The notes under the pieces: model-generated | The model's database searches: none | What the model saw: the letters and a program-made list of their open reading frames with translations, nothing else | What the model was told of the DNA's origin: nothing | Shown here: positions 5,395 through 32,356 of the stretch, piece by piece | How the letters are laid out: every line of letters begins with the position of its first letter | Numbering within the stretch: the first letter of the stretch is position 1 | Virus record (IMG/VR): IMGVR_UViG_3300042472_000140 | Coordinates: 1-61,147 of that record | DNA from: a virus | Lineage: Duplodnaviria > Caudoviricetes | Length of the DNA stretch: 61,147 nucleotides | Direction: 5' to 3' (one strand) | Position numbers and translations under genes: made by a program

Positions 5395-5976
5395 TCAAGC
5401 AAACGAGCTTACTTAGTTTTTGAAATCCTTTATATATAACAAGCGACACGGGATAGGGAGTTAGCGTTAGGAGATGGTTAGTCTAGTCAGCGTATGCGAC
5501 AGAGCTAGTGAAAGTATTAACCACCGAGACACCTCTACTTAGAACGATTATCCAATGCGATGTTGAGGCAGTAAGACCCCAAAGACATCAGTTATAACAA
5601 AAGAACAATAAATAATACGTTACACCTCGGTAGTATGATTATTTAGTTTGAAGTGTGAAACCTTAAGGCATGACGGAAGCCCCAGTCTTAAGCAACTAGC
5701 GAGTAAAACCGTTCATCAGGATTTTAAACCGTTCATCACAATTGGTGAAGATAAGCGAAAGTGAATGACTAGATTTGAAATGTGTTAGCAATCGAGCTAC
5801 ACTATACGAAGGAGCGTAATCTCTGAACCCATTGATAGTATTGTAAGGGACAACAACAAATACTCAAAGTCTTGCCTAAGTAGATTGAATAGGTGCACAA
5901 GTTACATGGAGAAAGCGAGAGCTGACGGAAGTAATCGAGTAATGGAGGATAAAAACCAAGCATCGAAAAAAGGCTA
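5395..5976 (+). ncRNA. Candidate large structured ncRNA (about 580 nt; ROOL/GOLLD-class size)
   Basis: No credible ORF between the promoter and the hammerhead; purine-rich; nested complementary segments (GGATA/TATCC, TGGTTAG/TTAACCA, CTAG/CTAG, GTC/GAC, GAGG/CCTC). Confidence 0.55.
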
Positions 5977-6020
5977 TACAGATGTGTGTCTGTACTGATG
6001 AGTTCAAAAGAACGAAAGCT
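5972..6020 (+). ncRNA. Hammerhead ribozyme, type III topology
   Basis: GGC-UA / stem I UACAGA-UCUGUA / CUGAUGA / stem II GUUC-AAAA-GAAC / GAAA / GCU; predicted cut after A5976; stem III is short. Confidence 0.8.
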
Positions 6021-6041
6021 AACCAATTAAAAATAACGACC

Positions 6042-7075: not shown

Positions 7076-7282
7076 ATGAACGGAAAGATTCACGACAGCG
7101 TAGGCTTCACTAAGGTAGATGGAGCGATAAGACAGTTAACCTTAAGAGAGAGGTTACAGCAGATTATTAACTTGGGACAGCCGAGCGACATTAAGGGCGT
7201 TCGAACTACAGTAAGAGACGCAGAGATTGCGCTCGAGCGATTCAAGAGTAGTTTACTCGACGAGGAGATAGGAAGAGATTAA
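7076..7282 (+). CDS. Early hypothetical protein
   Basis: ORF track; its stop codon forms part of hammerhead stem I. Confidence 0.7.
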   Translation: MNGKIHDSVGFTKVDGAIRQLTLRERLQQIINLGQPSDIKGVRTTVRDAEIALERFKSSLLDEEIGRD

Positions 7283-7334
7283 CTGACGAGCTTTAGATAA
7301 GCGAAACGGCACAAGAGATTGTGCTGTCTTAATC
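7277..7334 (+). ncRNA. Hammerhead ribozyme, type I topology
   Basis: GAUUAA / CUGACGA / GCUU-UAGAU-AAGC / GAAA / CGGCACAA-GAGA-UUGUGCUG / UC / UUAAUC; GUC triplet, predicted cut after C7328. Confidence 0.92.
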
Positions 7335-9779: not shown

Positions 9780-10181
9780 ATGAATGTAGGAGACGAGGTA
9801 ATAATAAGAAACCAGTTGGGAGGGCATCAGTTCTTCCTCAACGAGAAGGTCAGGATAACGGACGACATGGGTGGAGGTATATTCTATGCAACGAACGGGT
9901 ACTTCACGTGGGCTGTTCAGCTAGAGAACTTCGACGTGCTGATAGTCATGCCTAAGTTGAGGGCGTTCGTTGTGAAGCAGATGTCACCCAATTTTGGCAG
10001 GATAACAGACCAGTCTAACGGTAAACGTAGAGCTTTTGTTATTTTTAGTGATGACATGCTGAACGAAGCATCGATGATACTTTCAAAGATAGGTATAAAC
10101 ATTGTGTCTTACTCGTCACTAACTAAGGGCAGAGGTCTTCTGTTGAGCGACGACTTTGACACACCGATTCTTAATGTGTAG
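9780..10181 (+). CDS. Hypothetical protein (N-terminal SH3-like segment)
   Basis: ORF track. Confidence 0.7.
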   Translation: MNVGDEVIIRNQLGGHQFFLNEKVRITDDMGGGIFYATNGYFTWAVQLENFDVLIVMPKLRAFVVKQMSPNFGRITDQSNGKRRAFVIFSDDMLNEASMILSKIGINIVSYSSLTKGRGLLLSDDFDTPILNV

Positions 10182-10210
10182 GTAAGCTCCGACGGTAGGT
10201 TAAACCGTCA

Positions 10211-10286
10211 GCTAGTAGCTCAGTGGGGAGAGCGTGTTGTTTATAGGTTAGGCAACGAATGACGGGCGTTCAATTCGTCCCTAGCA
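10211..10286 (+). tRNA. tRNA-like RNA with short acceptor stem and aberrant anticodon arm (no anticodon assignable)
   Basis: D arm GCTC/GAGC; T arm GGGCG-TTCAATT-CGTCC; 5-bp acceptor GCTAG/CTAGC; 8-bp anticodon stem with 5-nt loop; no CCA. Confidence 0.55.
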
Positions 10287-10340
10287 AAAAGTCTTCGTCA
10301 AGACTAAAGCCATCGTGTATTGTGCACGATGGCTATAATT

Positions 10341-10460
10341 GGTTAGGTAGAGCAGTTGGTAGCTCGATTGGTGAGCAGTAAAAAGTATGGAGTAATTACC
10401 TGAGGATATACATTCAGTCTTGCCGATAGGTCGCATGTTCGAGTCATGCCCTAGCCACCA
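10341..10460 (+). tRNA. tRNA-like RNA (initiator-like body) with a 51-nt segment in place of the 7-nt anticodon loop
   Basis: Acceptor GGTTAGG/CCTAGCC plus ACCA; D arm GAGC-AGTTGGTA-GCTC; T arm GCATG-TTCGAGT-CATGC; anticodon stem ATTGG/CCGAT enclosing 10372-10422. Confidence 0.8.
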
Positions 10461-10489
10461 CATGTTTCATGTGTGTTTGGTTAATGTTG

Positions 10490-10522
10490 ATTGGAGGGGT
10501 GTGGTGTCCCTCCAATTATTTT
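10490..10522 (+). terminator. Intrinsic terminator after the tRNA-like cluster
   Basis: ATTGGAGGG/CCCTCCAAT stem followed by TATTTT. Confidence 0.65.
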
Positions 10523-10545
10523 AATGATTGTGAAACATAAATGAC

Positions 10546-10599
10546 TTATAACGTTTTGCAACTTGGCGCATTTTCAGTTGCGCTAAGGTGTGGTTATGC
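10546..10599. repeat. attC-like site 1
   Basis: TTATAAC...CTTGGCGCA/TGCGCTAAG...GTTATGC. Confidence 0.75.
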
Positions 10600-10623
10600 T
10601 TAGGTTTACATAAATAAAATAAT

Positions 10624-10794
10624 ATGACGAAGGATAAATTTATCGGTATGTATTTAGAACGTGAAATGAAAGACCACGGATTGCCTTATGGTTTGGCATA
10701 CTATAACTTACTTGAAGAAAAAACAGAAAAAGCAGAAAGGGCTTGGACAAGATTTTGCAAAAGATACGGAACTGCCAAAACTAAAGGTAAGTAA
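10624..10794 (+). CDS. Cassette 1 ORF, hypothetical (56 aa)
   Basis: Manual translation MTKDKFIGMYLEREMKDHGLPYG...; stop lies inside the arm preceding site 2. Confidence 0.7.
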   Translation: MTKDKFIGMYLEREMKDHGLPYGLAYYNLLEEKTEKAERAWTRFCKRYGTAKTKGK

Positions 10795-10917: not shown

Positions 10918-11073
10918 ATGGCAAAGAAAATGCAAAATTTACCAGAAGGAATGATACCTGATAGGGATAATGTCGTTTACTACGATACAGAGAAAGGACA
11001 GTTTTATATTATTAAGTGGGAAGATAGTGGGAACAATGACATCCCTATCAGACATTACATACCGAAGCCTTAA
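10918..11073 (+). CDS. Cassette 2 ORF, hypothetical (51 aa)
   Basis: Manual translation MAKKMQNLPEGMIPDRDNVVYYD...; stop abuts site 3. Confidence 0.7.
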   Translation: MAKKMQNLPEGMIPDRDNVVYYDTEKGQFYIIKWEDSGNNDIPIRHYIPKP

Positions 11074-11078
11074 ATGAC

Positions 11079-11177
11079 TTATAACGTTTTGCGGCTTTGT
11101 GTCTGTTTGCCCCTTGCACAATGCTTCAATTTACCACAAATGTTAATGAAGCAAATAGCACAAAACCGCTGTTAGCA
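11079..11177. repeat. attC-like site 3
   Basis: TTATAAC...GCGGCTTTGTGTCTGTTTGC/GCAAATAGCACAAAACCGC...GTTAGCA, with a bulged base. Confidence 0.8.
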
Positions 11178-11220: not shown

Positions 11221-11784
11221 ATGAAAAAAATTAGCACATTATTTAAGAAAGACCCACAAGATTTGGGCAGAGTAATCAATGAAGTGAACCCTGAAAATGA
11301 GTGGGGGTTTACAGATGGAATACCAACACGAAAGTATGATGGAACTGCAACTGCTATAATTGATGGCGAACTTTACAAAAGATACGATGTGAAGAAAGGC
11401 AGACAAGTTCCTGATGGTGCAATACCTTGTCAAGAAGCTGATTTAATAACAGGACATCATCCACATTGGTTAAAATGTAGCCACGATAAAAACGAGGATA
11501 AATACTTTTTTGAAGGATTTAATTCACTTGCTGAACTTGGCACGGTTGAAGATGGTACTTATGAATTGATTGGTGAAAAAGTACAAGGCAACCCCGAAAA
11601 AATAGAAGGACATCATTTGGTAAAACACGGAGCAAAAGTTTTGCAAGGATTGATTAACCCAATGACATTTGAAAACTTAAAGGAATACTTGGAGAAAGTA
11701 GATATTGAGGGAATTGTATTTCATCATAAGTCCTATGGTCATATGTGTAAATTACGAAAATCTGATTTTGGAATACGGAGGTAG
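11221..11784 (+). CDS. Cassette 3 ORF: RNA-ligase-like nucleotidyltransferase (DUF5565/Rlig1-like)
   Basis: Ligase motifs I KYDG, III YELIG, IV EGIVF, V CKLR. Confidence 0.7.
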   Translation: MKKISTLFKKDPQDLGRVINEVNPENEWGFTDGIPTRKYDGTATAIIDGELYKRYDVKKGRQVPDGAIPCQEADLITGHHPHWLKCSHDKNEDKYFFEGFNSLAELGTVEDGTYELIGEKVQGNPEKIEGHHLVKHGAKVLQGLINPMTFENLKEYLEKVDIEGIVFHHKSYGHMCKLRKSDFGIRR

Positions 11785-23614: not shown

Positions 23615-23655
23615 AATGTCCAGTTAATTTCAAACTTAACTGGACATTCTTTTTT
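23615..23655. terminator. Terminator at the convergence of the two genome arms
   Basis: Perfect 13-bp stem AATGTCCAGTTAA/TTAACTGGACATT followed by a T run. Confidence 0.8.
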
Positions 23656-26600
23656 ACTTCCTCTTTGAATACTTCTTATCGTATATGTATAAGGCTTGCT
23701 TTGATAACTTCATCTTAGCTTTACCCATAACTTCAGATAGTATTTTCTTTTCTTCACTATCAAGTTCTGATCCGTATCTGTTATAAAGTCTTAACGCTTG
23801 AACTTCAGGAGTTTCTTCATACAGTATATCAAGTATCGACCTATCGATGTTCATGTTCTTGATGTATGCATAATATTTTTTAGCGTACTTCTCCTGGTCT
23901 TTTTTCTCAAAGTTAGTTTTTATTAAATCTACTAACTCACCATTTGACAACTCCTTCCCGTCCTTATATATATTCTTGATGGTGTTGTACACCTTCTGTT
24001 CTTTGTTATATATATCTGTCTCGATAATCATCTCTTGATTTTCTATCTTGTCCTCTTCCTTATATCTGATGTTATCTTTGTTAGTAGTTCTCTTTAACTT
24101 CCTAGCTGAAGCATCAAATACATTACTAAAGGCATCTGAGAATTCAGCTCCGTATCCATCCTTATTAAAGAATCCATTCACAGATGCATAAAATATAGAT
24201 ATCATAGGGTTAGTATTCTCACTTGTAACTATCTTCTCTATAGCCGCCTTAGTTCTAATAGGAGACAACCCTAGACTAGGTGCTATCTTTTTATATATCT
24301 CCTCTACCTTATCGTCGTACATTCCCTCCGCACTAGCTGCTATCTTTTTATCTCTAGGTTCTCTAAAGATTTTCTCCCCAGTAAATGAATCCCAGTTAAA
24401 ACTATACGTTAGAAGTCCAGATATAAGTGGATTTCTAGATGCAATATCAGACGGTGAGAATGGAGTTGATGCCGATATAGATTTATTTATCACCTCTTGG
24501 TCTACATCATATTTAATTCCTGCCTCTGATAGTAAGTACTTGTACGTGAACTGCTCTGCCACAGTAGACATTACAGATAGAACTGGTAATTTTTTTACTC
24601 TGTAGTACTCGTACTCTCCATCCTTATCCTTCTTACCAGTAAATATTATATGGTATGTTGCCTTCTCGTAATCAGATAATGAATCTAACACCTCTAATAC
24701 TTTCTTCTTCTCTTCTTCGTCATCTCCAACTGATCTCATAAGTGCAGCTAAAGACAGTGCCGCTACTGATCCAGCCATTACTGCCGCTTGAACTAAGCTA
24801 GAAGTAAATCCTAGTGGGTTATTTTTAGCGTACTCAAGAGGTCTTCTAAATCCTTGCATGGATGCATTTAAGTATGGCATCACATTATCAGCCGTCTTAA
24901 CCCATGTCCCTCCCTGATTGAAGTCCATTGTCTCTCTAGCATTCCTTGTTGCCTCGTACATTATATCATCTAGTTCCTTAGCGTCAGGGTCTCTTCCGTT
25001 TTCTTTTTTGAATTTAGATATCTCGTCACCTTTTACTTTATCATAAACAGCAAGTCTAAACGCAAGTTCAGATTTTTCTCCTAGGTAGGACATGATGTTT
25101 CCGTAGCCAACTAATACCTTCTGACTGATATTTAGTATCTTATTTTTAGGAGACAGTGACTTCAATGCTCTAAGACCGTCGTTAGATAGAAAGTCCATAG
25201 CTCCACCATGCTCAACGTATTCGTTGTATATTACATTCTTTCTATTCTTAGTTGCTACTCCCTTCAAGAACTTTCTAACAAAGTCATAGCTTAACTGAGC
25301 ACCTCCAACTAGCTTGAACTTTGAGTACACATCAGAGAAGAATAATATGTTCTGGAAATCTACTGCTGTGTTACCAATAATGAACAACGGGTTACCTCCA
25401 GTCGCAAAGAACCTTAGTATTTTAGCTCCAGTTAATGTACCAATTAAATTAAGTGCCTGGTTTGAAGACTTAATATCTAACAGCTGTGTAGCATATTCAT
25501 CTTTAACTACTAGGTCCGTCTTCACTCCATTCTTAAAGAATGACACTATGCTGTACCCTATAGGCACATTATTTTGGTTGTACTTATACTGAATAGACCC
25601 AGTAGATGTCTGCTTTACTATAGGGTTATCTATTATGAATTCAGACATAGCGTCTCTCTGTTCTTGAGTTGCTCCATCAATAGCGTCACTGAACTCATTT
25701 AGCATCTTATTCTCGAACGCTCGTCCTTCAACAGACATAACGTTCAACATAAGGAGCCACTTAGAGTCAAATATTATAGCGTTCTCGTTACTGTCAGTAA
25801 GAGCCATTATATCTTTCTTACTAACTCCTAACTTACTAGCCTCTCTATCTACAGTAGCTGGGTCTAAGTTATCTCCAATGATGTACTTAATAGTTCTAAT
25901 AGGAGAGTACTCTATATCTCTCAGGTTTATGTAAGTCTCTTCGTTTATTCTACCTGACTCGTACAGCTTCTTTAAGTTTTCTGAGAACACACCAAAATAT
26001 TTAGTAGCTCTTTCGCTTAAGTCGTTGAATTTCTTTTCACCTATCTTATTCTTTATAGCATCTAAATCTTTTAAAGCCTTCACCTCAGAGTAACCGTCCA
26101 TACCAGTGTATGGCTCTGCTCCTTGCTTGGCTCTACTCTCATTAATAGCTACCATACGTCTTGCGTATATGATATCATCAAGTGTATCTAAATCATTCTT
26201 TTTCAAATCTTTATAGATATCAGCCTCAGCATTTTTAAATCTGTAGTTAGCAAAACCACTAGCTCCAGCCTTGTTGACTAATAAGTTGTAAGCTCTTATT
26301 GACTCCTTGCTTCCGATGCCTTTAATTAATCTCTTAATGTCGGACTGTCTATCAATAAATTTATTTCTTATTGCTCTAATTCTATCTCTTATAGTCAGCT
26401 TCTTCTGTCTAGCCATAAGTTCTTTCTGACTAGCTTCCCTTATCTTACTCACAGTGACGTCACCAGTGTCTGGCTCCATTGCGTCGTTGATATTCTTGTC
26501 AGAGTATCCCTGGTCCTTTAAGTACTGACGGATAGCAGCGTCAGAGAACCCTTGGTCCTTAGTCAACTTAACTATGTCGTTGATGGTCTTAGGCTTCTGC

Positions 26601-29600
26601 TTACGTGGAGATATACTCTCTTCGATACCAGTAACCTCTTCAGCTATCTGCTTACGTGGTGTGATCTGCTTGGATATGTTCTTAGGGAACCTCTTGAAGT
26701 TTATGCCTCCACCTACTCCGTCACCTTTGAACGTGATCATGTCACCATCGATACTAGTTATCTTACCCTTAGACCCGTACACCTCAACGTCATCTCCTAC
26801 CTTGTAAGTTTCTTCAGCTATAGGCTTCATAGATACATTGTCCTTAGAAGCCTCAAGCGACATTGTAGTCTGTGCTCTGAGTTCGTTATTTCTCCATCTA
26901 GCAACGACCATGTCATACCCGTTCTCGTTAGCGACCTGAGTTATAAATGCCAACTGGTAGTTAGGGCTGAATGATTGTGAAGGACGTGCAACCTCGAATC
27001 TTTTCTTAGCCTCGTCATAGAAGTTTTCTGGATCACTATTAAAGTCGTACACCTTACCGTTAGGAACAAGGACAGTGTGTAGTACGTTACCAACACCTGG
27101 CTCAACCTGGTTGTCCATCGTGTAGTACATCGCAAGTCCTCCAACAGCAGATAAGGCTCCACCTTCTTCCTTCCCAGTGATGATATTCTCTCCAGTTCCA
27201 GGCTTAATTACATCTCTATTGTCGTTTGAGTAGTGATGGAACACGAAGTTTCCGCTCTTATCTTCAGTCAACTTGTTTGACAGCTCTGGAGCAAGTTGCT
27301 TTCTAGAAGAAATTTCTTTTATCCCTATGCCATAAGGAGCAACAACTTGAGATTGCTCAGATCGAGACATATCATCACGATATTTATCCTTTATTTCAGA
27401 AGGCATTATATCATAAGAATTAATTTTCTTATCTGGAACACCTACAACAGAACCTAATATATCTGTTTCATATGTAGAATGTTTAGATTTTTCACCTAAT
27501 TTATCAGCCTTTAAAACTAACATAATATCTCCCATCTCAAAATTATTATCTTGATAGAATCCATCACGTAAATCATTTGGATCAACAAATGCATTATATT
27601 TTTCTAATACTTTTTTTGCTAGAGTATTTTTAGTTTGTTGTTCATTTATAGCTATAATAAAATTCTTTCTATCAGCCCCCATAAATAGGTCTTCATAAGA
27701 ATTATATTTTTCTAATATAGATTTTATCTTAGATGTTGGTTTAGATTCTAGTAATTCTTTTTTAAAGTTATTAAATTCAATAGCTCCTTCAATTCTTCTT
27801 CTAATTAAATTAGTAACAGTCTTGTTGAATAATTTTGATCTCTGAGGGGATCCACTTATAATAAATATATAATCAGATTTAGCTATATTATTATCTAAAG
27901 TTTTCTTTTTAGCACCAGAAGCCCATATTACATTATTACTTCTATTCTCAGGATCTAACGCAAACGATGGTCCAGCATCTAAGAAATGTTCTCCATTTAA
28001 TACTGAATCAAAATAATTTCCTCTTCCTAATTGATCAGCAACCCAAAACCAAACCTTTTGTTTTTTAGATGAAATATCAGATATTAATGAATCAATATCA
28101 ATAATATCTTCTTTCGTTACAAAAGTTAATTTTTGATCTTTACTTACTTTTACTTGTTTTCTTGGTTCAGTAGATTCAACAATATTAGTTGTAACACCAG
28201 TTATTGACATCATATTAATATCAGCCTCACTAATCACCTTACCCTTAGCTACCTTTCTAGCTATAGTGTTGAGCATGTCGTAGGTCTCGTTTCTGTTGAA
28301 CGGATCTAATTTAGATATCTTAGCCAACTTATCTATCCATCTGAAGATAGTATCCTTAACAGATGTAGAAAATGAATTATAGTTCTCAGCTAATACACCT
28401 ACTAGTTCAGCTAGTTTCTCTTCGTTCTGAATATTCTCATCGTAGTTAGATATAAAGTCATTCAATTTTTTATTTACATCTACATCAACTTTAAGCCATA
28501 TAGCTTCAATCATTCGTTTAGTTATATCAGCAGCATTTTTATCTGTCTTAACCTTATTTATTAAGATAGCATGGAATACCTCGTGAGCTACAGTTCTATT
28601 GTTAGCTGACGTTCCATTAATATGTATGGTATTCGTTTTTGCATTAAACTCACCATTTGATGATTGCTTCAGTCCTTCTTCTTTTGTAGCAGCTCTATAT
28701 GACTCATCTGTATCATGAACTATAAACTTAGTGCCTGGTATAACCTTAGATACTGCCTTAGCTGCTCTAGCTACTGCCTTAGATATTTTCTTATTAACTA
28801 TAGTATACGCCTTCTGGTCAATCTCTTGATCTGTTCCAGACAATAACTGTCCGATAGCCTCAACCTCTTGCTCTACGGTAGGACCTTCTTTTGTAGCTGG
28901 TAACAAAGGAGTTATCAGCTTGTCATACTTGTCGTATATCTCGTTGTACTTCGTTAGGTCTTCAGGAGTCATTAGGGTCTTATCTACTTCACCGTTAACC
29001 TTGTAGTCTTCTATGTTAGGTATAACGTCAGATAACTCCGCTTGTTCTTCTGCTCTTAAGGTTGCTACTTGGTCTTGTTCAGTAGGTTGAACTGCTGATG
29101 CCTTATCTTGTAAATTAAACAATTCTGACTGTGCAACATCAAATTTATCTGCCTTAGAACGAAAGTCTGGATTAGCCATAACTTCCTCTTCAGTTAAACC
29201 TTGATCTTCCAACTCAGCTTGCAGGATGGTTTTTTCATCCCAAAGAGAATCAACTTCTGCCTGCTTAGCGTCTACTTCTTCTTGCTGTACTTCGCTTGTG
29301 ACAACGCTATCGCCACGATCTGCTTCTGGCTGCGTGGTTTCCCGTTTGCCCCCTTCGCTGATCCCGACTTCTTGTTGTCCTTCACCAGTTCTCTGATATT
29401 CGCTTGTACTGACTTCTTGGACGTTGCTTTCTTTAGTGGCATCTTCTGATATCTTTGTTAGTTCGTTATTTATCTCGGCAACTCTTGCCTTCTGTGATGC
29501 GACAAGGTTTTCATCCTTGCCAGCAATTTCTTTTTCTAGTTTATTTCTTTCTAATGTAAGAGTTAATGCACTCTTTAAATTCTCGCCAGTTATATTATCA

Positions 29601-32356
29601 GGAATTTTATTAAACAGACCTTGCACATCATTCATAGCATCTAACTGGTTCTGAGCTTCTGACTTTGTTATTTTTCCAGAAAGCATTCCAGTCTTTAACT
29701 TTGCAATAAAAATTTTCTTAATCTCTGAATCTTCTGCAATTGATTTTAGAAAATCTACATCTTTAGCATTATATAGGCTTATGTCTCCATTTCTAATCTT
29801 CTCATATGACGTACCAACAGATGTCATAACCATACCTCCTATAGCTTCAGCTGCTGCGTCTTCTAATACCATAGCTGCACCTTCACTAAAAGAGTCAGGA
29901 GTATCAAAGTATTCTCCTTGAGATAAGTCTGTTGCAAGTTTCCCGTCAGTCTTGTCTTTGTATATGTTGTATAGACCCTTCAGTCCAATGTCTAATACAA
30001 GAGACTGAGTTGCACCAGTCTCTGCCTCTGCTAGTGTACCTCCTATTACTTTTAATCCAAACTTAGCTATATTTGATTTTATTTCTTTTTCAAGAACACT
30101 CTCAAATACTTTTTTGGTTGTATTTCCACCTATCTTACCAGCTACTGAAAGTAATGATTTAGCTATTAATGATTTAGCTAATGGGTTCTTTGACATCATT
30201 GTAGTTACACCAATATTCTCTAAGATACCCATACCTATAGCATAAGGAACAGTAATTATAGATCTATCCTTCACAGATGTAGTTTCAAAGTCAGGATCAT
30301 TAAGCATCTCATCCTCAATAGAACTATAAGCCTGAGTCCCTAATGCTGATATTCTAGCAGCAGCTCCACCTGGAACAAGCATAGCTGGTAATGATTCAGC
30401 AACTCCAGCTAATGCTTTCTCAAAGAAACCACGATCAGCTGATTTTCTATATTCTTCTGTTGTACTTGATGTTCCTAATGTTTCAATTAATGATGATTTA
30501 ACAACTTCTTTAACTTGTTTTTGTCTTTTATTAGCAAGATAATTTATAGATTCTTCTTTACTGTATTTTTTATCTTTTAAATAATTTTTTATTTGAGGGT
30601 CTAGCATTTCATAATCAAGATCTCCTGAATAAGATGCAGCTAATCCAACTGGAAATTCTATTATTTTAGATACTCCACTAACAGTAGAGTTAAGCATGTT
30701 ACCCCAAAACCCACCAATTTTTTCTTTTGTCAATAAGTATTTTCCAGCTACAGTCTCTAATTTTTTCATTTCAGACACTACTGCATTACCACTTTTCTTT
30801 ATTTCTAAATTTTTATTATCTATATCTTCAGCTCGCTGTATAAATTCAGATGACATTGCGTCGTACTGTTCTTTATCAATTTGTCCAGAGTTTACTTTTT
30901 GATTAAATTCATTCAGATCTTTTTGATATTGTGCAGTTTCTGTTTCAATCTTTTTATATGAATTGCTTACATCATTTAACTGTATGTTATAGTTATTAGT
31001 TTGATCTTGTATAAAGTTATTAGATAAATAAGAATCTATTTGTTGTTTAATAACTTTCTTTTGATCATCAGTTTTTGCTTGCTTTAATGAGTAGTAAAGT
31101 TTATCAATTTGATCTGTTCTATCTTTTAATTGTTTAGAAACATCTTTTTTATATATTTTATATATATCAGAATTATAAAAATTACTTATTTCATCTTTAG
31201 TTCTATTTATTTCACTTTGATTTCCAGTATTACCAGCTGTATTTCTATTGCGTCTTAAATCATTTAAATAAATGTCAATTTCCTTCTTTTTACTGTAAAA
31301 GTCTAATGATTTAAAATCATCTACATATTGATCAGACTTTAAATATTCATTTAATTTTTTATTTCCTTCTGCAATTGCTGAGTTTCTTGCCTTATTTATT
31401 GAATCAGATAATGATCCATCTGGAAGTGGTATATCAGATATTTTTTGTCTTAATTCTTTTATATTATTATTTTTTGTAGATTTATCTGATTTATTTAAAT
31501 CCAAGAATGTTCTCAGTTTTAAAGCCTCTGTTGGGTTAGATTCATCTAAACCTACCTCCATAGTTTTACCATTCTTAGCGGTAACAGTAACGTAGTCTGT
31601 ACCCATGCCAGATTGCTCAAATGAGAACCCTAAGTTACCGTACTTGTTTTGTAAATATGGAACTACAGTCTCCTCTGTATTTGATACTAACTTAGAATTT
31701 ATATCAGCAAATTTAGGAGTATTATCTTCTACAACATTTTGTAGTACTGTAGGTATTTTTACTTTTTTCTTAAATTGATTATTTAGAGCAGTTATAGCCG
31801 TAGCGTCAGTTAACGTGGTCCACTTTGTAGCAGTAGGCTGCATTCGCTCCCAGTTACCATTATATACTCTGTACTTATTAGTTTCTTTACCAGGGACTCC
31901 AACAAAAACTTCTTCTATATCTGATGCTCCAGCATTCTGATTGAAGTGCTTATTAAGTGCTGCTACTCTAGCTGGATCAGTTATATTTATTTTTACACTG
32001 ATAGGAGCTGATACTGGTTTATTTCCGACTACTAATCCAGTTCCTGCATCTTCCTTCCATATTGGTGTACCAGTAGATTCATCTAATATATACTTCTTAT
32101 CTCCCTTCCCAGGATACCCAGTGAATACTTGTTGTTTAGCCTTTCCTCCAGACGATACCAAAGGCTTTTGAGCCGTCTTTGGCTTTGATGTAGCCAATGT
32201 AGATTCCAGTAGATCTGTAACGGGCGAAAATATAACACCCTTCTTCTTTGGAGCAGGCGTAGCTTCTTTTTTTTTTACTGGTTCTAATATATCACTTGGT
32301 TTAGGAAGAGATGATTTATTCAATATATCACCTGGTTTTGGTAAGTTATTTGGCAT
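23654..32356 (-). CDS. Giant virion/ejection-type polyvalent protein (2900 aa) with zincin motif and LPD38-like C-terminus
   Basis: HEVFH...EEKLAE; C-terminal ARETMDF-x-QG...PYLNASMQG region; last gene of the virion module. Confidence 0.75.
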   Translation of the reverse strand: MPNNLPKPGDILNKSSLPKPSDILEPVKKKEATPAPKKKGVIFSPVTDLLESTLATSKPKTAQKPLVSSGGKAKQQVFTGYPGKGDKKYILDESTGTPIWKEDAGTGLVVGNKPVSAPISVKINITDPARVAALNKHFNQNAGASDIEEVFVGVPGKETNKYRVYNGNWERMQPTATKWTTLTDATAITALNNQFKKKVKIPTVLQNVVEDNTPKFADINSKLVSNTEETVVPYLQNKYGNLGFSFEQSGMGTDYVTVTAKNGKTMEVGLDESNPTEALKLRTFLDLNKSDKSTKNNNIKELRQKISDIPLPDGSLSDSINKARNSAIAEGNKKLNEYLKSDQYVDDFKSLDFYSKKKEIDIYLNDLRRNRNTAGNTGNQSEINRTKDEISNFYNSDIYKIYKKDVSKQLKDRTDQIDKLYYSLKQAKTDDQKKVIKQQIDSYLSNNFIQDQTNNYNIQLNDVSNSYKKIETETAQYQKDLNEFNQKVNSGQIDKEQYDAMSSEFIQRAEDIDNKNLEIKKSGNAVVSEMKKLETVAGKYLLTKEKIGGFWGNMLNSTVSGVSKIIEFPVGLAASYSGDLDYEMLDPQIKNYLKDKKYSKEESINYLANKRQKQVKEVVKSSLIETLGTSSTTEEYRKSADRGFFEKALAGVAESLPAMLVPGGAAARISALGTQAYSSIEDEMLNDPDFETTSVKDRSIITVPYAIGMGILENIGVTTMMSKNPLAKSLIAKSLLSVAGKIGGNTTKKVFESVLEKEIKSNIAKFGLKVIGGTLAEAETGATQSLVLDIGLKGLYNIYKDKTDGKLATDLSQGEYFDTPDSFSEGAAMVLEDAAAEAIGGMVMTSVGTSYEKIRNGDISLYNAKDVDFLKSIAEDSEIKKIFIAKLKTGMLSGKITKSEAQNQLDAMNDVQGLFNKIPDNITGENLKSALTLTLERNKLEKEIAGKDENLVASQKARVAEINNELTKISEDATKESNVQEVSTSEYQRTGEGQQEVGISEGGKRETTQPEADRGDSVVTSEVQQEEVDAKQAEVDSLWDEKTILQAELEDQGLTEEEVMANPDFRSKADKFDVAQSELFNLQDKASAVQPTEQDQVATLRAEEQAELSDVIPNIEDYKVNGEVDKTLMTPEDLTKYNEIYDKYDKLITPLLPATKEGPTVEQEVEAIGQLLSGTDQEIDQKAYTIVNKKISKAVARAAKAVSKVIPGTKFIVHDTDESYRAATKEEGLKQSSNGEFNAKTNTIHINGTSANNRTVAHEVFHAILINKVKTDKNAADITKRMIEAIWLKVDVDVNKKLNDFISNYDENIQNEEKLAELVGVLAENYNSFSTSVKDTIFRWIDKLAKISKLDPFNRNETYDMLNTIARKVAKGKVISEADINMMSITGVTTNIVESTEPRKQVKVSKDQKLTFVTKEDIIDIDSLISDISSKKQKVWFWVADQLGRGNYFDSVLNGEHFLDAGPSFALDPENRSNNVIWASGAKKKTLDNNIAKSDYIFIISGSPQRSKLFNKTVTNLIRRRIEGAIEFNNFKKELLESKPTSKIKSILEKYNSYEDLFMGADRKNFIIAINEQQTKNTLAKKVLEKYNAFVDPNDLRDGFYQDNNFEMGDIMLVLKADKLGEKSKHSTYETDILGSVVGVPDKKINSYDIMPSEIKDKYRDDMSRSEQSQVVAPYGIGIKEISSRKQLAPELSNKLTEDKSGNFVFHHYSNDNRDVIKPGTGENIITGKEEGGALSAVGGLAMYYTMDNQVEPGVGNVLHTVLVPNGKVYDFNSDPENFYDEAKKRFEVARPSQSFSPNYQLAFITQVANENGYDMVVARWRNNELRAQTTMSLEASKDNVSMKPIAEETYKVGDDVEVYGSKGKITSIDGDMITFKGDGVGGGINFKRFPKNISKQITPRKQIAEEVTGIEESISPRKQKPKTINDIVKLTKDQGFSDAAIRQYLKDQGYSDKNINDAMEPDTGDVTVSKIREASQKELMARQKKLTIRDRIRAIRNKFIDRQSDIKRLIKGIGSKESIRAYNLLVNKAGASGFANYRFKNAEADIYKDLKKNDLDTLDDIIYARRMVAINESRAKQGAEPYTGMDGYSEVKALKDLDAIKNKIGEKKFNDLSERATKYFGVFSENLKKLYESGRINEETYINLRDIEYSPIRTIKYIIGDNLDPATVDREASKLGVSKKDIMALTDSNENAIIFDSKWLLMLNVMSVEGRAFENKMLNEFSDAIDGATQEQRDAMSEFIIDNPIVKQTSTGSIQYKYNQNNVPIGYSIVSFFKNGVKTDLVVKDEYATQLLDIKSSNQALNLIGTLTGAKILRFFATGGNPLFIIGNTAVDFQNILFFSDVYSKFKLVGGAQLSYDFVRKFLKGVATKNRKNVIYNEYVEHGGAMDFLSNDGLRALKSLSPKNKILNISQKVLVGYGNIMSYLGEKSELAFRLAVYDKVKGDEISKFKKENGRDPDAKELDDIMYEATRNARETMDFNQGGTWVKTADNVMPYLNASMQGFRRPLEYAKNNPLGFTSSLVQAAVMAGSVAALSLAALMRSVGDDEEEKKKVLEVLDSLSDYEKATYHIIFTGKKDKDGEYEYYRVKKLPVLSVMSTVAEQFTYKYLLSEAGIKYDVDQEVINKSISASTPFSPSDIASRNPLISGLLTYSFNWDSFTGEKIFREPRDKKIAASAEGMYDDKVEEIYKKIAPSLGLSPIRTKAAIEKIVTSENTNPMISIFYASVNGFFNKDGYGAEFSDAFSNVFDASARKLKRTTNKDNIRYKEEDKIENQEMIIETDIYNKEQKVYNTIKNIYKDGKELSNGELVDLIKTNFEKKDQEKYAKKYYAYIKNMNIDRSILDILYEETPEVQALRLYNRYGSELDSEEKKILSEVMGKAKMKLSKQALYIYDKKYSKRK

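Follow-up and report, generated by a model that had tools for sequence, protein, structure and literature searches.

A conserved tRNA-framed RNA gene of uncultured phages carrying a loop-E-like arm in place of the anticodon loop

Stable tRNA-like RNAs of phages have been known since T4 and T5 and, to our knowledge, no job has been assigned to them. RNAC and RNAD of T4 look like tRNA. Also termed species 1 and 2 RNAs, they originate from the phage tRNA region and are described with roles unknown (PMC3014915), and their detection by Northern blot late in infection is described as well (PMC9697503). Phage T5 encodes RNA1 (144 nt) and RNA2 (125 nt), both annotated as 'tRNA-like stable RNA with unknown functions' (NC_005859.1). 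For Lak megaphages of Bacteroidota, tRNAs with conserved 'enigmatic' introns are reported in a preprint (bioRxiv 10.1101/356790). In the laboratory, engineered tRNA scaffolds follow a related design, in which an RNA of interest replaces the anticodon loop (PMC3753655). Relevant for the present case is furthermore loop E of 5S rRNA, the L25 site, which is described as symmetrical and composed of non-canonical pairs (PMC4408793).

Here, an RNA gene is described which most likely represents a working small RNA, neither a decoder nor a broken gene. The whole stretch of DNA analysed (the window) comprises 61,147 bp and corresponds to an entire virus record that carries direct terminal repeats. Its terminase is nearest to those of podophages of Flavobacterium, Cellulophaga and Tenacibaculum (87 matching records, top identity 66%), and the phage is a podophage of Flavobacteriia type; DNA near-identical to the window was found in many lake-water metagenome runs. 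On the minus strand, a reading frame of 2900 aa at 23654-32356 gave no Pfam match. The RNA gene, hereafter the element, is located upstream of the replication genes, where small plus-strand genes form a block. The features of the region are the following:

10208-10289, plus strand: degenerate tRNA-like gene (Rfam tRNA model and ARAGORN; kept upstream of the element in the close relative L182)
10341-10460, plus strand: whole tRNA-framed RNA gene, 117 nt to the discriminator, then CCA (sequence, ARAGORN with introns allowed)
10341-10371, plus strand: 5' half of the tRNA body, i.e. acceptor 5' strand, U8 and A9, D arm, G26 and anticodon-stem 5' strand (covariation)
10372-10375, plus strand: UGAG, 5' strand of the 4-bp anticodon-stem extension, pairing with 10419-10422
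10377-10380, plus strand: AGUA, 5' strand of helix P3, pairing with 10409-10412 (UACA; covariation, RNAalifold)
10381-10388, plus strand: 5' strand of the loop-E-like run, insert positions 10-17 (position-wise comparison with E. coli 5S rRNA pairs 72-79/97-104)
10389-10400, plus strand: GG/CC helix of 2 bp (G18-C29, G19-C28) with an 8-nt apical loop (10391-10398)
10401-10408, plus strand: 3' strand of the loop-E-like run, insert positions 30-37, facing insert positions 10-17
10413-10418, plus strand: one-sided internal loop UUCAGU of 6 nt, with C, U or A as fourth base across the family
10419-10457, plus strand: 3' half, i.e. stem extension, anticodon-stem 3' strand, variable loop, T arm, acceptor 3' strand and discriminator A
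10488-10525, plus strand: terminator-like hairpin with a T run, 28 nt past the CCA of the element
11221-11784, plus strand: RNA ligase of 187 aa (PHROG 'RNA ligase', Pfam RLIG1)

An initial annotation of this DNA had described a tRNA body with its anticodon loop replaced by 51 nt, and this architecture was confirmed by the sequence itself, by ARAGORN with introns allowed, by covariation and by RNAalifold. The acceptor stem (10341-10347 with 10450-10456) comprises 7 bp including U3.G70, the D arm (10350-10365) carries G18 and G19 in its loop, the variable loop has 5 nt, and the T arm (10433-10449) has the loop UUCGAGU; discriminator A is followed by CCA at 10458-10460. As likewise stated at the outset and borne out by the sequence, the anticodon stem (10367-10371 with 10423-10427) is lengthened by UGAG/CUUG (10372-10375 with 10419-10422) to 9 bp and encloses 43 nt (10376-10418). 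The 51-nt insert, numbered 1-51 for window positions 10372-10422, hence occupies the place of the anticodon loop. Two further traits pointed out initially, an initiator-like A11-U24 pair and an encoded CCA, are present in the window copy but do not extend to the family: pair 11-24 is C-G in five of the 11 aligned members, A-U in four, U-G in one and unpaired in another, and CCA is encoded only in the window and in L182 (2 of 11).

With its cloverleaf of 7-bp acceptor stem, D arm and T arm, the element agrees with canonical tRNA, but it lacks the 5-bp stem with a 7-nt anticodon loop containing U33, and the score threshold of the Rfam tRNA model (RF00005) is not reached. Standard ARAGORN and RF00005 do not report 10341-10460, the latter giving no match even at E-values up to 5. 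When introns are allowed, as had been proposed as a check, ARAGORN at its default threshold calls the element and the 10208-10289 gene and nothing else in the whole 61 kb on both strands. Covariance model R1, made for this analysis, scores the window element with 133.6 bits. The minimum-energy fold of the single sequence (z = -0.75) does not recover the cloverleaf, so single-sequence folding is no guide for this element.

Several known RNA classes were weighed and rejected. A tmRNA is marked by tRNA-like ends with G3:U70, by the lack of a normal D stem and by a tag reading frame. For the element, ARAGORN reports no tmRNA, pair 3:70 is U.G, U-A or C-G, and the D stem is intact. The YrlA model (RF02553) gave no match in the window, and in the jumbo-phage relative L134 only weak matches on ordinary tRNAs elsewhere; no small self-cleaving ribozyme of Rfam matches at the element. 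The hammerhead consensus reads CUGANGA, and CUGAGGA of the insert fits it in some members only, with GAAA absent. K-turn and bulge-helix-bulge readings of the insert were weighed by eye and dropped. Finally, Rfam 15 holds no model for the element family.

The tRNA-like gene at 10208-10289 probably belongs to the same small-RNA unit as the element. With 30.4 bits it lies barely above the Rfam tRNA threshold, mismatches occupy the top two pairs of its acceptor stem, and the loop at the 'anticodon' position comprises 13 nt; L182 keeps this gene with a differing middle part. In a relative represented by a Logan contig of run X20, aligned to 10169-10561, the first tRNA-like gene and the terminator region are kept and 227 different letters replace window positions 10302-10454, element included. 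Downstream of the terminator-like hairpin, the intergenic motif AAATGACTTATAACGTTTTGC occurs twice on the plus strand (about 10538-10600 and 11073-11095), with a small hairpin after the first copy; it is possibly a phage promoter or leader, and two distant relatives, L053 and L054, conserve window positions 10541-10626. Short contigs of one wastewater run pile up at 11082-11174, immediately 5' of the ligase gene, to a summed depth in the thousands. Regarding the element region itself, the four sequencing runs compared with it consist of contigs; those labelled as RNA gave no cover, bar a depth of 1-3 in one that is probably DNA.

Members of the family were found by four DNA patterns taken from the element, which yielded at least 11 distinct sequences from at least 14 phage or metagenome records, namely 12 viral contigs (window counted) and at least two metagenome contigs. 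L280 and L285, identical to L274 and L277, respectively, were left out of the alignment, as was L278 with a 27-nt internal tandem duplication of the 3' part of the element, which may be real or an assembly artefact. Since the patterns were drawn from the insert core, conservation of this core is partly built in. Fairer evidence is provided by GGUGAGC, AGUCUUGCC and P3, all outside the patterns; the two flanks, GGUGAGC and AGUCUUGCC, are nearly invariant. Other searches returned no further members. Neither a blastn search of window 10100-10700 against phage records (no match at E 1e-5) nor one of the element at E 1 against 50,697 phage records (only 21-nt matches of tRNA type) retrieved a relative, and no cultured phage record holds the element. 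It is absent from all 48 loci sharing the RNA ligase. Of 80 loci found via the primase, the closest relatives end before the region and the more distant ones lack the element, the covariance model detecting only other tRNA-framed RNAs in these loci. A strict pattern of the tRNA body gave 0 matches, and the 44 pattern matches in representative bacterial and archaeal genomes are read as chance because none has the flanking sequence of the family. No paper on the family was found in literature searches; it is uncatalogued and resides in uncultured phages.

The tRNA frame of the element is under selection. In the 11-row alignment, 92.3% of 375 cells pair, compared with 29-48% when the partners are slid, and 17 of 35 pairs change on both sides, a number reached in none of 500 shuffles. 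Such compensatory changes affect the acceptor, D, anticodon and T stems alike in the 11 members, each of which has the insert, and RNAalifold independently gives the cloverleaf, the 9-bp stem and helix P3. The bodies themselves differ considerably: acceptor strands read GGUUAGG, AGUCAGG, AGCAAGG or GGUCGAG, D and T arms are of several kinds, and several members have a Leu-tRNA-like body with discriminator A. Such differing bodies indicate homologues, not assembly copies of one sequence. On them, the insert is kept at 51 nt in 10 of 11 members (53 nt in L277) and is better conserved than the body, with a mean pairwise identity of 0.79 versus 0.68 and a higher likeness in 46 of 55 pairs. Additionally, in L142, a phage genome rated complete, P3 and the core are found in a four-way junction that is not tRNA-like, so the insert module can move between frames.

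These data also bear on the simplest alternative, a dead tRNA gene broken by a small insertion. Such a gene would be overlooked by standard tRNA finders, as the element is, and the neighbour at 10208-10289 is indeed degenerate. An insert conserved in length and sequence on bodies that differ and yet still pair, with compensatory changes in four stems over 11 insert-bearing members, is however compatible neither with decay nor with a recent insertion, which makes this explanation extremely unlikely. The early argument that an intact frame speaks against simple decay has thereby stood, and the homologue alignment suggested at that stage returned a conserved insert. Ordinary-tRNA relatives with an unconserved insert were not seen among the relatives found by element-derived patterns. 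The proposal of a tRNA-scaffolded functional RNA is supported by this conservation on differing, still-pairing bodies.

Within the insert, the stem extension is followed by P3. Pair 3:49 of the extension is A-U in nine and G-C in two of the 11 members, and pair 2:50 is G.U in nine and A-U in two. P3 is formed by insert positions 6-9 with 38-41, where 7:40 is G-C in seven members, A-U in two and U-A in one, and 8:39 is U-A in eight and G-C in two; L175 does not form this helix.

Beyond P3, the two strands at positions 10-17 and 30-37 resemble loop E. In L134, L265 and L274 they read AUGGUAG...GAGAGUA, and identical 7-mers stand on either side of helix IV in E. coli 5S rRNA, AUGGUA and GAGAGUA being common to four Bacteroidota 5S rRNAs as well. 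Set against the E. coli pairs 72-79/97-104 (G.A, A.U, U.G, G.A, G.G, U.A, A.G, G-C), the pairs of these three members (A.A, A.U, U.G, G.A, G.G, U.A, A.G, G.U) are identical at six of eight places, the geometries of individual loop E pairs being those of the literature and not computed ones, and RNAalifold favouring another register for the inner helix. The window copy (A.A, A.U, A.A, A.G, G.G, U.A, A.G, U.U) departs at four of eight pairs, with A.A, A.A, A.G and U.U in place of G.A, U.G, G.A and G-C. Bacterial loop E, taken as AUGGUA/GAGAGUA strands between Watson-Crick helices, is present in exact form in three of 11 members, and the other eight deviate only at 10.37, 12.35, 13.34 or 17.30. 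Positions 11.36, 14.33, 15.32 and 16.31 are invariant across the family. At 13.34 a purine-purine covariation is observed, with G.A in five members, A.G in six and never G.G or A.A; 12.35 is U.G, A.A or G.G, and 17.30 is G.U in nine members, A-U in one and U.U in one, the window.

The rod ends in a self-complementary tip. In the window, UAAUUA at 10393-10398 is self-complementary and part of an 8-nt palindrome at 10392-10399. The last six bases of the tip loop are UAAUUA in five members, including the wobble variant UAAUUG of L267, and UCAUGA in six, so that the inner pair 23:26 is A:U in five members, C:G in six and unpaired in none. Between the L134 and L265 inserts there are just two base differences, both at the palindrome partners 23 and 26 (A:U to C:G). 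Since only 2 nt separate these bases, they cannot pair within one hairpin, and pairing between two molecules would explain the double change most simply; alternatively, a strained 2-nt loop or a tetraloop with a closing pair may account for it. The two changes of L267 keep self-pairing and lengthen it. No half-changed palindrome was seen, and a scan with the palindrome left free found no new variant among the 14 stretches returned (10 at known family records, three from an unrelated coding stretch and one tRNA on the other strand). As only three palindrome states occur in the family, as few as two events may underlie the switch. With 3 sites versus 1.67 expected, the phage genome shows no enrichment of the palindrome, and two-copy cofolding favours dimers in 11 of 11 members, which most hairpins do and which is hence not evidence.

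Another explanation to be considered is an intron-bearing tRNA, in which the insert, or 36 nt of it, would be removed and the ends joined, perhaps by the product of the nearby RNA ligase gene, yielding a tRNA able to decode. The 7 nt that immediately precede the 3' strand of the stem resemble an anticodon loop in nine of 11 members, with a variable base at position 35. Excision of insert positions 5-40 would thus leave the loop AUUCAGU (U33, anticodon UCA, G37), giving an opal suppressor (UCA) in the window, an ochre-type anticodon (UUA) in L182 and L267, and Leu (UAA) in six members (L134, L265, L175, L273, L274 and L277), several members having a Leu-tRNA-like body with discriminator A anyway. 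The conserved 'enigmatic' introns of Lak megaphage tRNAs (bioRxiv 10.1101/356790) and the RLIG1-like gene 0.8 kb downstream of the element point in the same direction. The product, however, would carry this loop on a 9-bp anticodon stem, and L276 and L281 give no such loop at all. In decoding tRNAs the anticodon stem has a fixed length, which 9 bp does not fit; the anticodon-loop-like pattern is therefore retained only as part of a quite unlikely alternative. On a normal 5-bp stem, no excision yields U33, as 7 nt taken from the insert ends always give G or A there.

Known intron types do not fit either. Archaeal and eukaryal tRNA introns have a bulge-helix-bulge at the splice sites, usually at 37/38, and a group I intron comprises some 200 nt or more with a P1-P9 core. 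Inspection by eye, not by a dedicated program, revealed no bulge-helix-bulge but a continuous stem of 9 bp lacking 3-nt bulges, and Rfam searches at E-values up to 5 gave no group I intron or ribozyme for the 51-nt insert. Further points against an intron are that the insert is better conserved than the exons and that the forced calls of ARAGORN disagree, with Ala(agc) in three members and Leu(aag) in one. Since the standard code leaves the long reading frames of the window open, no suppressor is needed there.

The ligase gene likewise fails to accompany the element, being absent from all eight other searchable element-bearing records, two of which are rated complete. Conversely, it recurs alone in 48 viral loci with 44-96% protein identity; as flanks are not shared among them, it looks like a mobile, wandering cassette. 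The mini-intron needing a ligase, offered in the initial annotation as the other option, is therefore not supported, given that no excision on a 5-bp stem provides U33, that ARAGORN calls are inconsistent and that the 48 ligase loci do without the element.

A second neighbouring gene has to be considered in the case of a cis-acting role, according to which the element would be a leader or processing site for a downstream cell-wall hydrolase, its tRNA shape merely recruiting RNase P to cut the transcript. Indeed, a glucosaminidase-domain gene (PF01832) lies directly 3' of the element in G003 and G007, and such a gene is located 1.75 kb downstream in the window, with the ligase cassette and small genes intervening. 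Hammerhead-like self-cutters between early genes of the window phage would fit transcript processing, too. The respective plus-strand matches (5973-6023 and 7254-7333, between small early genes) score 25.0 and 31.7 bits, below the Rfam thresholds. On the other hand, the element is followed by a terminator-like hairpin in the window and by an identical one in L182, and a conserved 51-nt rod would be superfluous for a mere cutting signal. In the six other contexts examined, no PF01832 gene adjoins the element, three of them (L134, L270 and L334) being tRNA arrays of jumbo phages, and the link is therefore read as common gene order, not function. A cis-acting site is thus considered very unlikely.

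The jumbo-phage contexts are informative in another respect. The array that houses the element in the fragment L134 comprises 26 ordinary tRNAs, which serve all 20 amino acids, and the element hence is not needed for decoding there. The covariance model additionally picks up many other tRNA-framed RNAs in relatives of the window phage and in jumbo phages. L057, L066, L076, L091, L092, L107 and L116/117/120/124 have a leucine-tRNA-like frame bearing inserts of 30-80 nt that are unrelated, some having additional inserts in the D loop, and L080 and L090 contain 59-60-nt forms without any anticodon arm. In the jumbo-phage contigs L130 (1495-1585) and L132 (minus strand), a tRNA with CAU at the anticodon position has a 23-nt insert following inside the loop. 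A second T-arm-like hairpin (stem and UUCGAUU loop) is present in the inserts of L134 (2269-2384) and of T5 RNA2 (L337, 2960-3084, minus strand), a 'double elbow' design thus common to an uncultured jumbo phage and T5. That the same phage group places many other inserts on tRNA frames suggests a general use of the tRNA body by phages to carry small functional RNAs. Programs restricted to standard tRNAs overlook such genes or label them pseudogenes.

The variety of frames also fits an arms race and a decoy, in which the tRNA body would draw a host enzyme attacking or sensing tRNA, such as an anticodon nuclease, a toxin or a modification enzyme, while the rod blocks cleavage or traps the enzyme. 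The element retains intact L-shape determinants, RNA-repair genes of the phage lie close by, and relatives and jumbo phages hold many tRNA frames with varied replacements of the anticodon arm as well as 59-60-nt forms that lack this arm. How hosts attack anticodon loops, and how phages counter this, is described in a review (PMC7824862). Nevertheless, a decoy needs neither a base-for-base loop-E run nor a self-complementary loop, and no defence gene or nuclease partner was identified, leaving this role unlikely.

Sequence and covariation demonstrate the tRNA frame and the extension of its anticodon stem, together with P3, the loop-E-like run and the self-complementary tip. Based on these features, the element is rather likely to be a non-decoding, tRNA-scaffolded phage small RNA of the kind known from T5 RNA1/RNA2 and T4 RNAC/RNAD, acting as follows. 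Because the cloverleaf and the bases of tertiary contacts are intact, host tRNA enzymes (RNase P, 3' trimming and CCA addition) would cut out and stabilise the RNA via its tRNA body. The working part would be the arm in place of the anticodon loop, a near-continuous rod with the order 5-bp anticodon stem, 4-bp extension, one-sided 6-nt loop, P3, loop-E-like run, two G-C pairs and 8-nt loop. Two molecules could join tip to tip through the self-complementary loop, in analogy to retroviral dimerisation loops, and the loop-E surface may bind a protein recognising this motif, the 5S-binding protein bL25/CTC being the obvious candidate. Judged from the sequence, dimerisation of the element through its tip or its binding to a protein that recognises loop E is probable, and the likeliest aim would be to tie up a host translation or defence factor. 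For experiments, both the base-for-base likeness to the 5S protein-binding motif and the self-complementary loop with its natural compensatory switch offer handles.

A more specific version would regard the element as a chimera in which a tRNA body is joined to a reduced 5S loop E/helix IV arm and whose tip dimer captures bL25/CTC or docks at the ribosomal 5S/tRNA place. If true, the phage could tune or disable host translation or the stress response, and the element would be the first natural RNA mimic of 5S rRNA from a virus. The Rfam 5S model has no match in the window. Loop E motifs occur in many RNAs and the likeness therefore need not mean 5S mimicry. Such a chimera appears quite doubtful.

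Compared with 5S rRNA itself, loop E/helix IV and the element share identical strands in three members, the same order around the hairpin and Watson-Crick flanks, whereas helix IV is reduced to two pairs, loop D is replaced by the self-complementary loop and the rest of 5S rRNA is absent. The Lak megaphage tRNAs are likewise over-long genes with highly conserved inserts in Bacteroidota phages that are found only with intron-tolerant settings; they are described with a normal anticodon after excision, while in the element excision restores no canonical loop on a stem of normal length. Engineered tRNA scaffolds have the same design, and the cell treats the chimera as a tRNA, yet they are laboratory tools and the element is natural and conserved. 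T4 RNAC and RNAD, likened here by their origin, are also small RNAs of a phage tRNA region. Closest are RNA1 and RNA2 of T5, which, like the element, are phage-encoded, have tRNA acceptor, D and T arms with tRNA-like ends, and bear a large folded non-tRNA domain replacing the anticodon arm or loop; they are located among tRNA genes, as are the jumbo-phage members of the element family. They share no sequence likeness with the element, their inserts contain neither a loop-E run nor a palindromic tip by eye, and they are proven stable RNAs, the element a putative one. The element is a fresh variant within the old class of phage tRNA-like stable RNAs.
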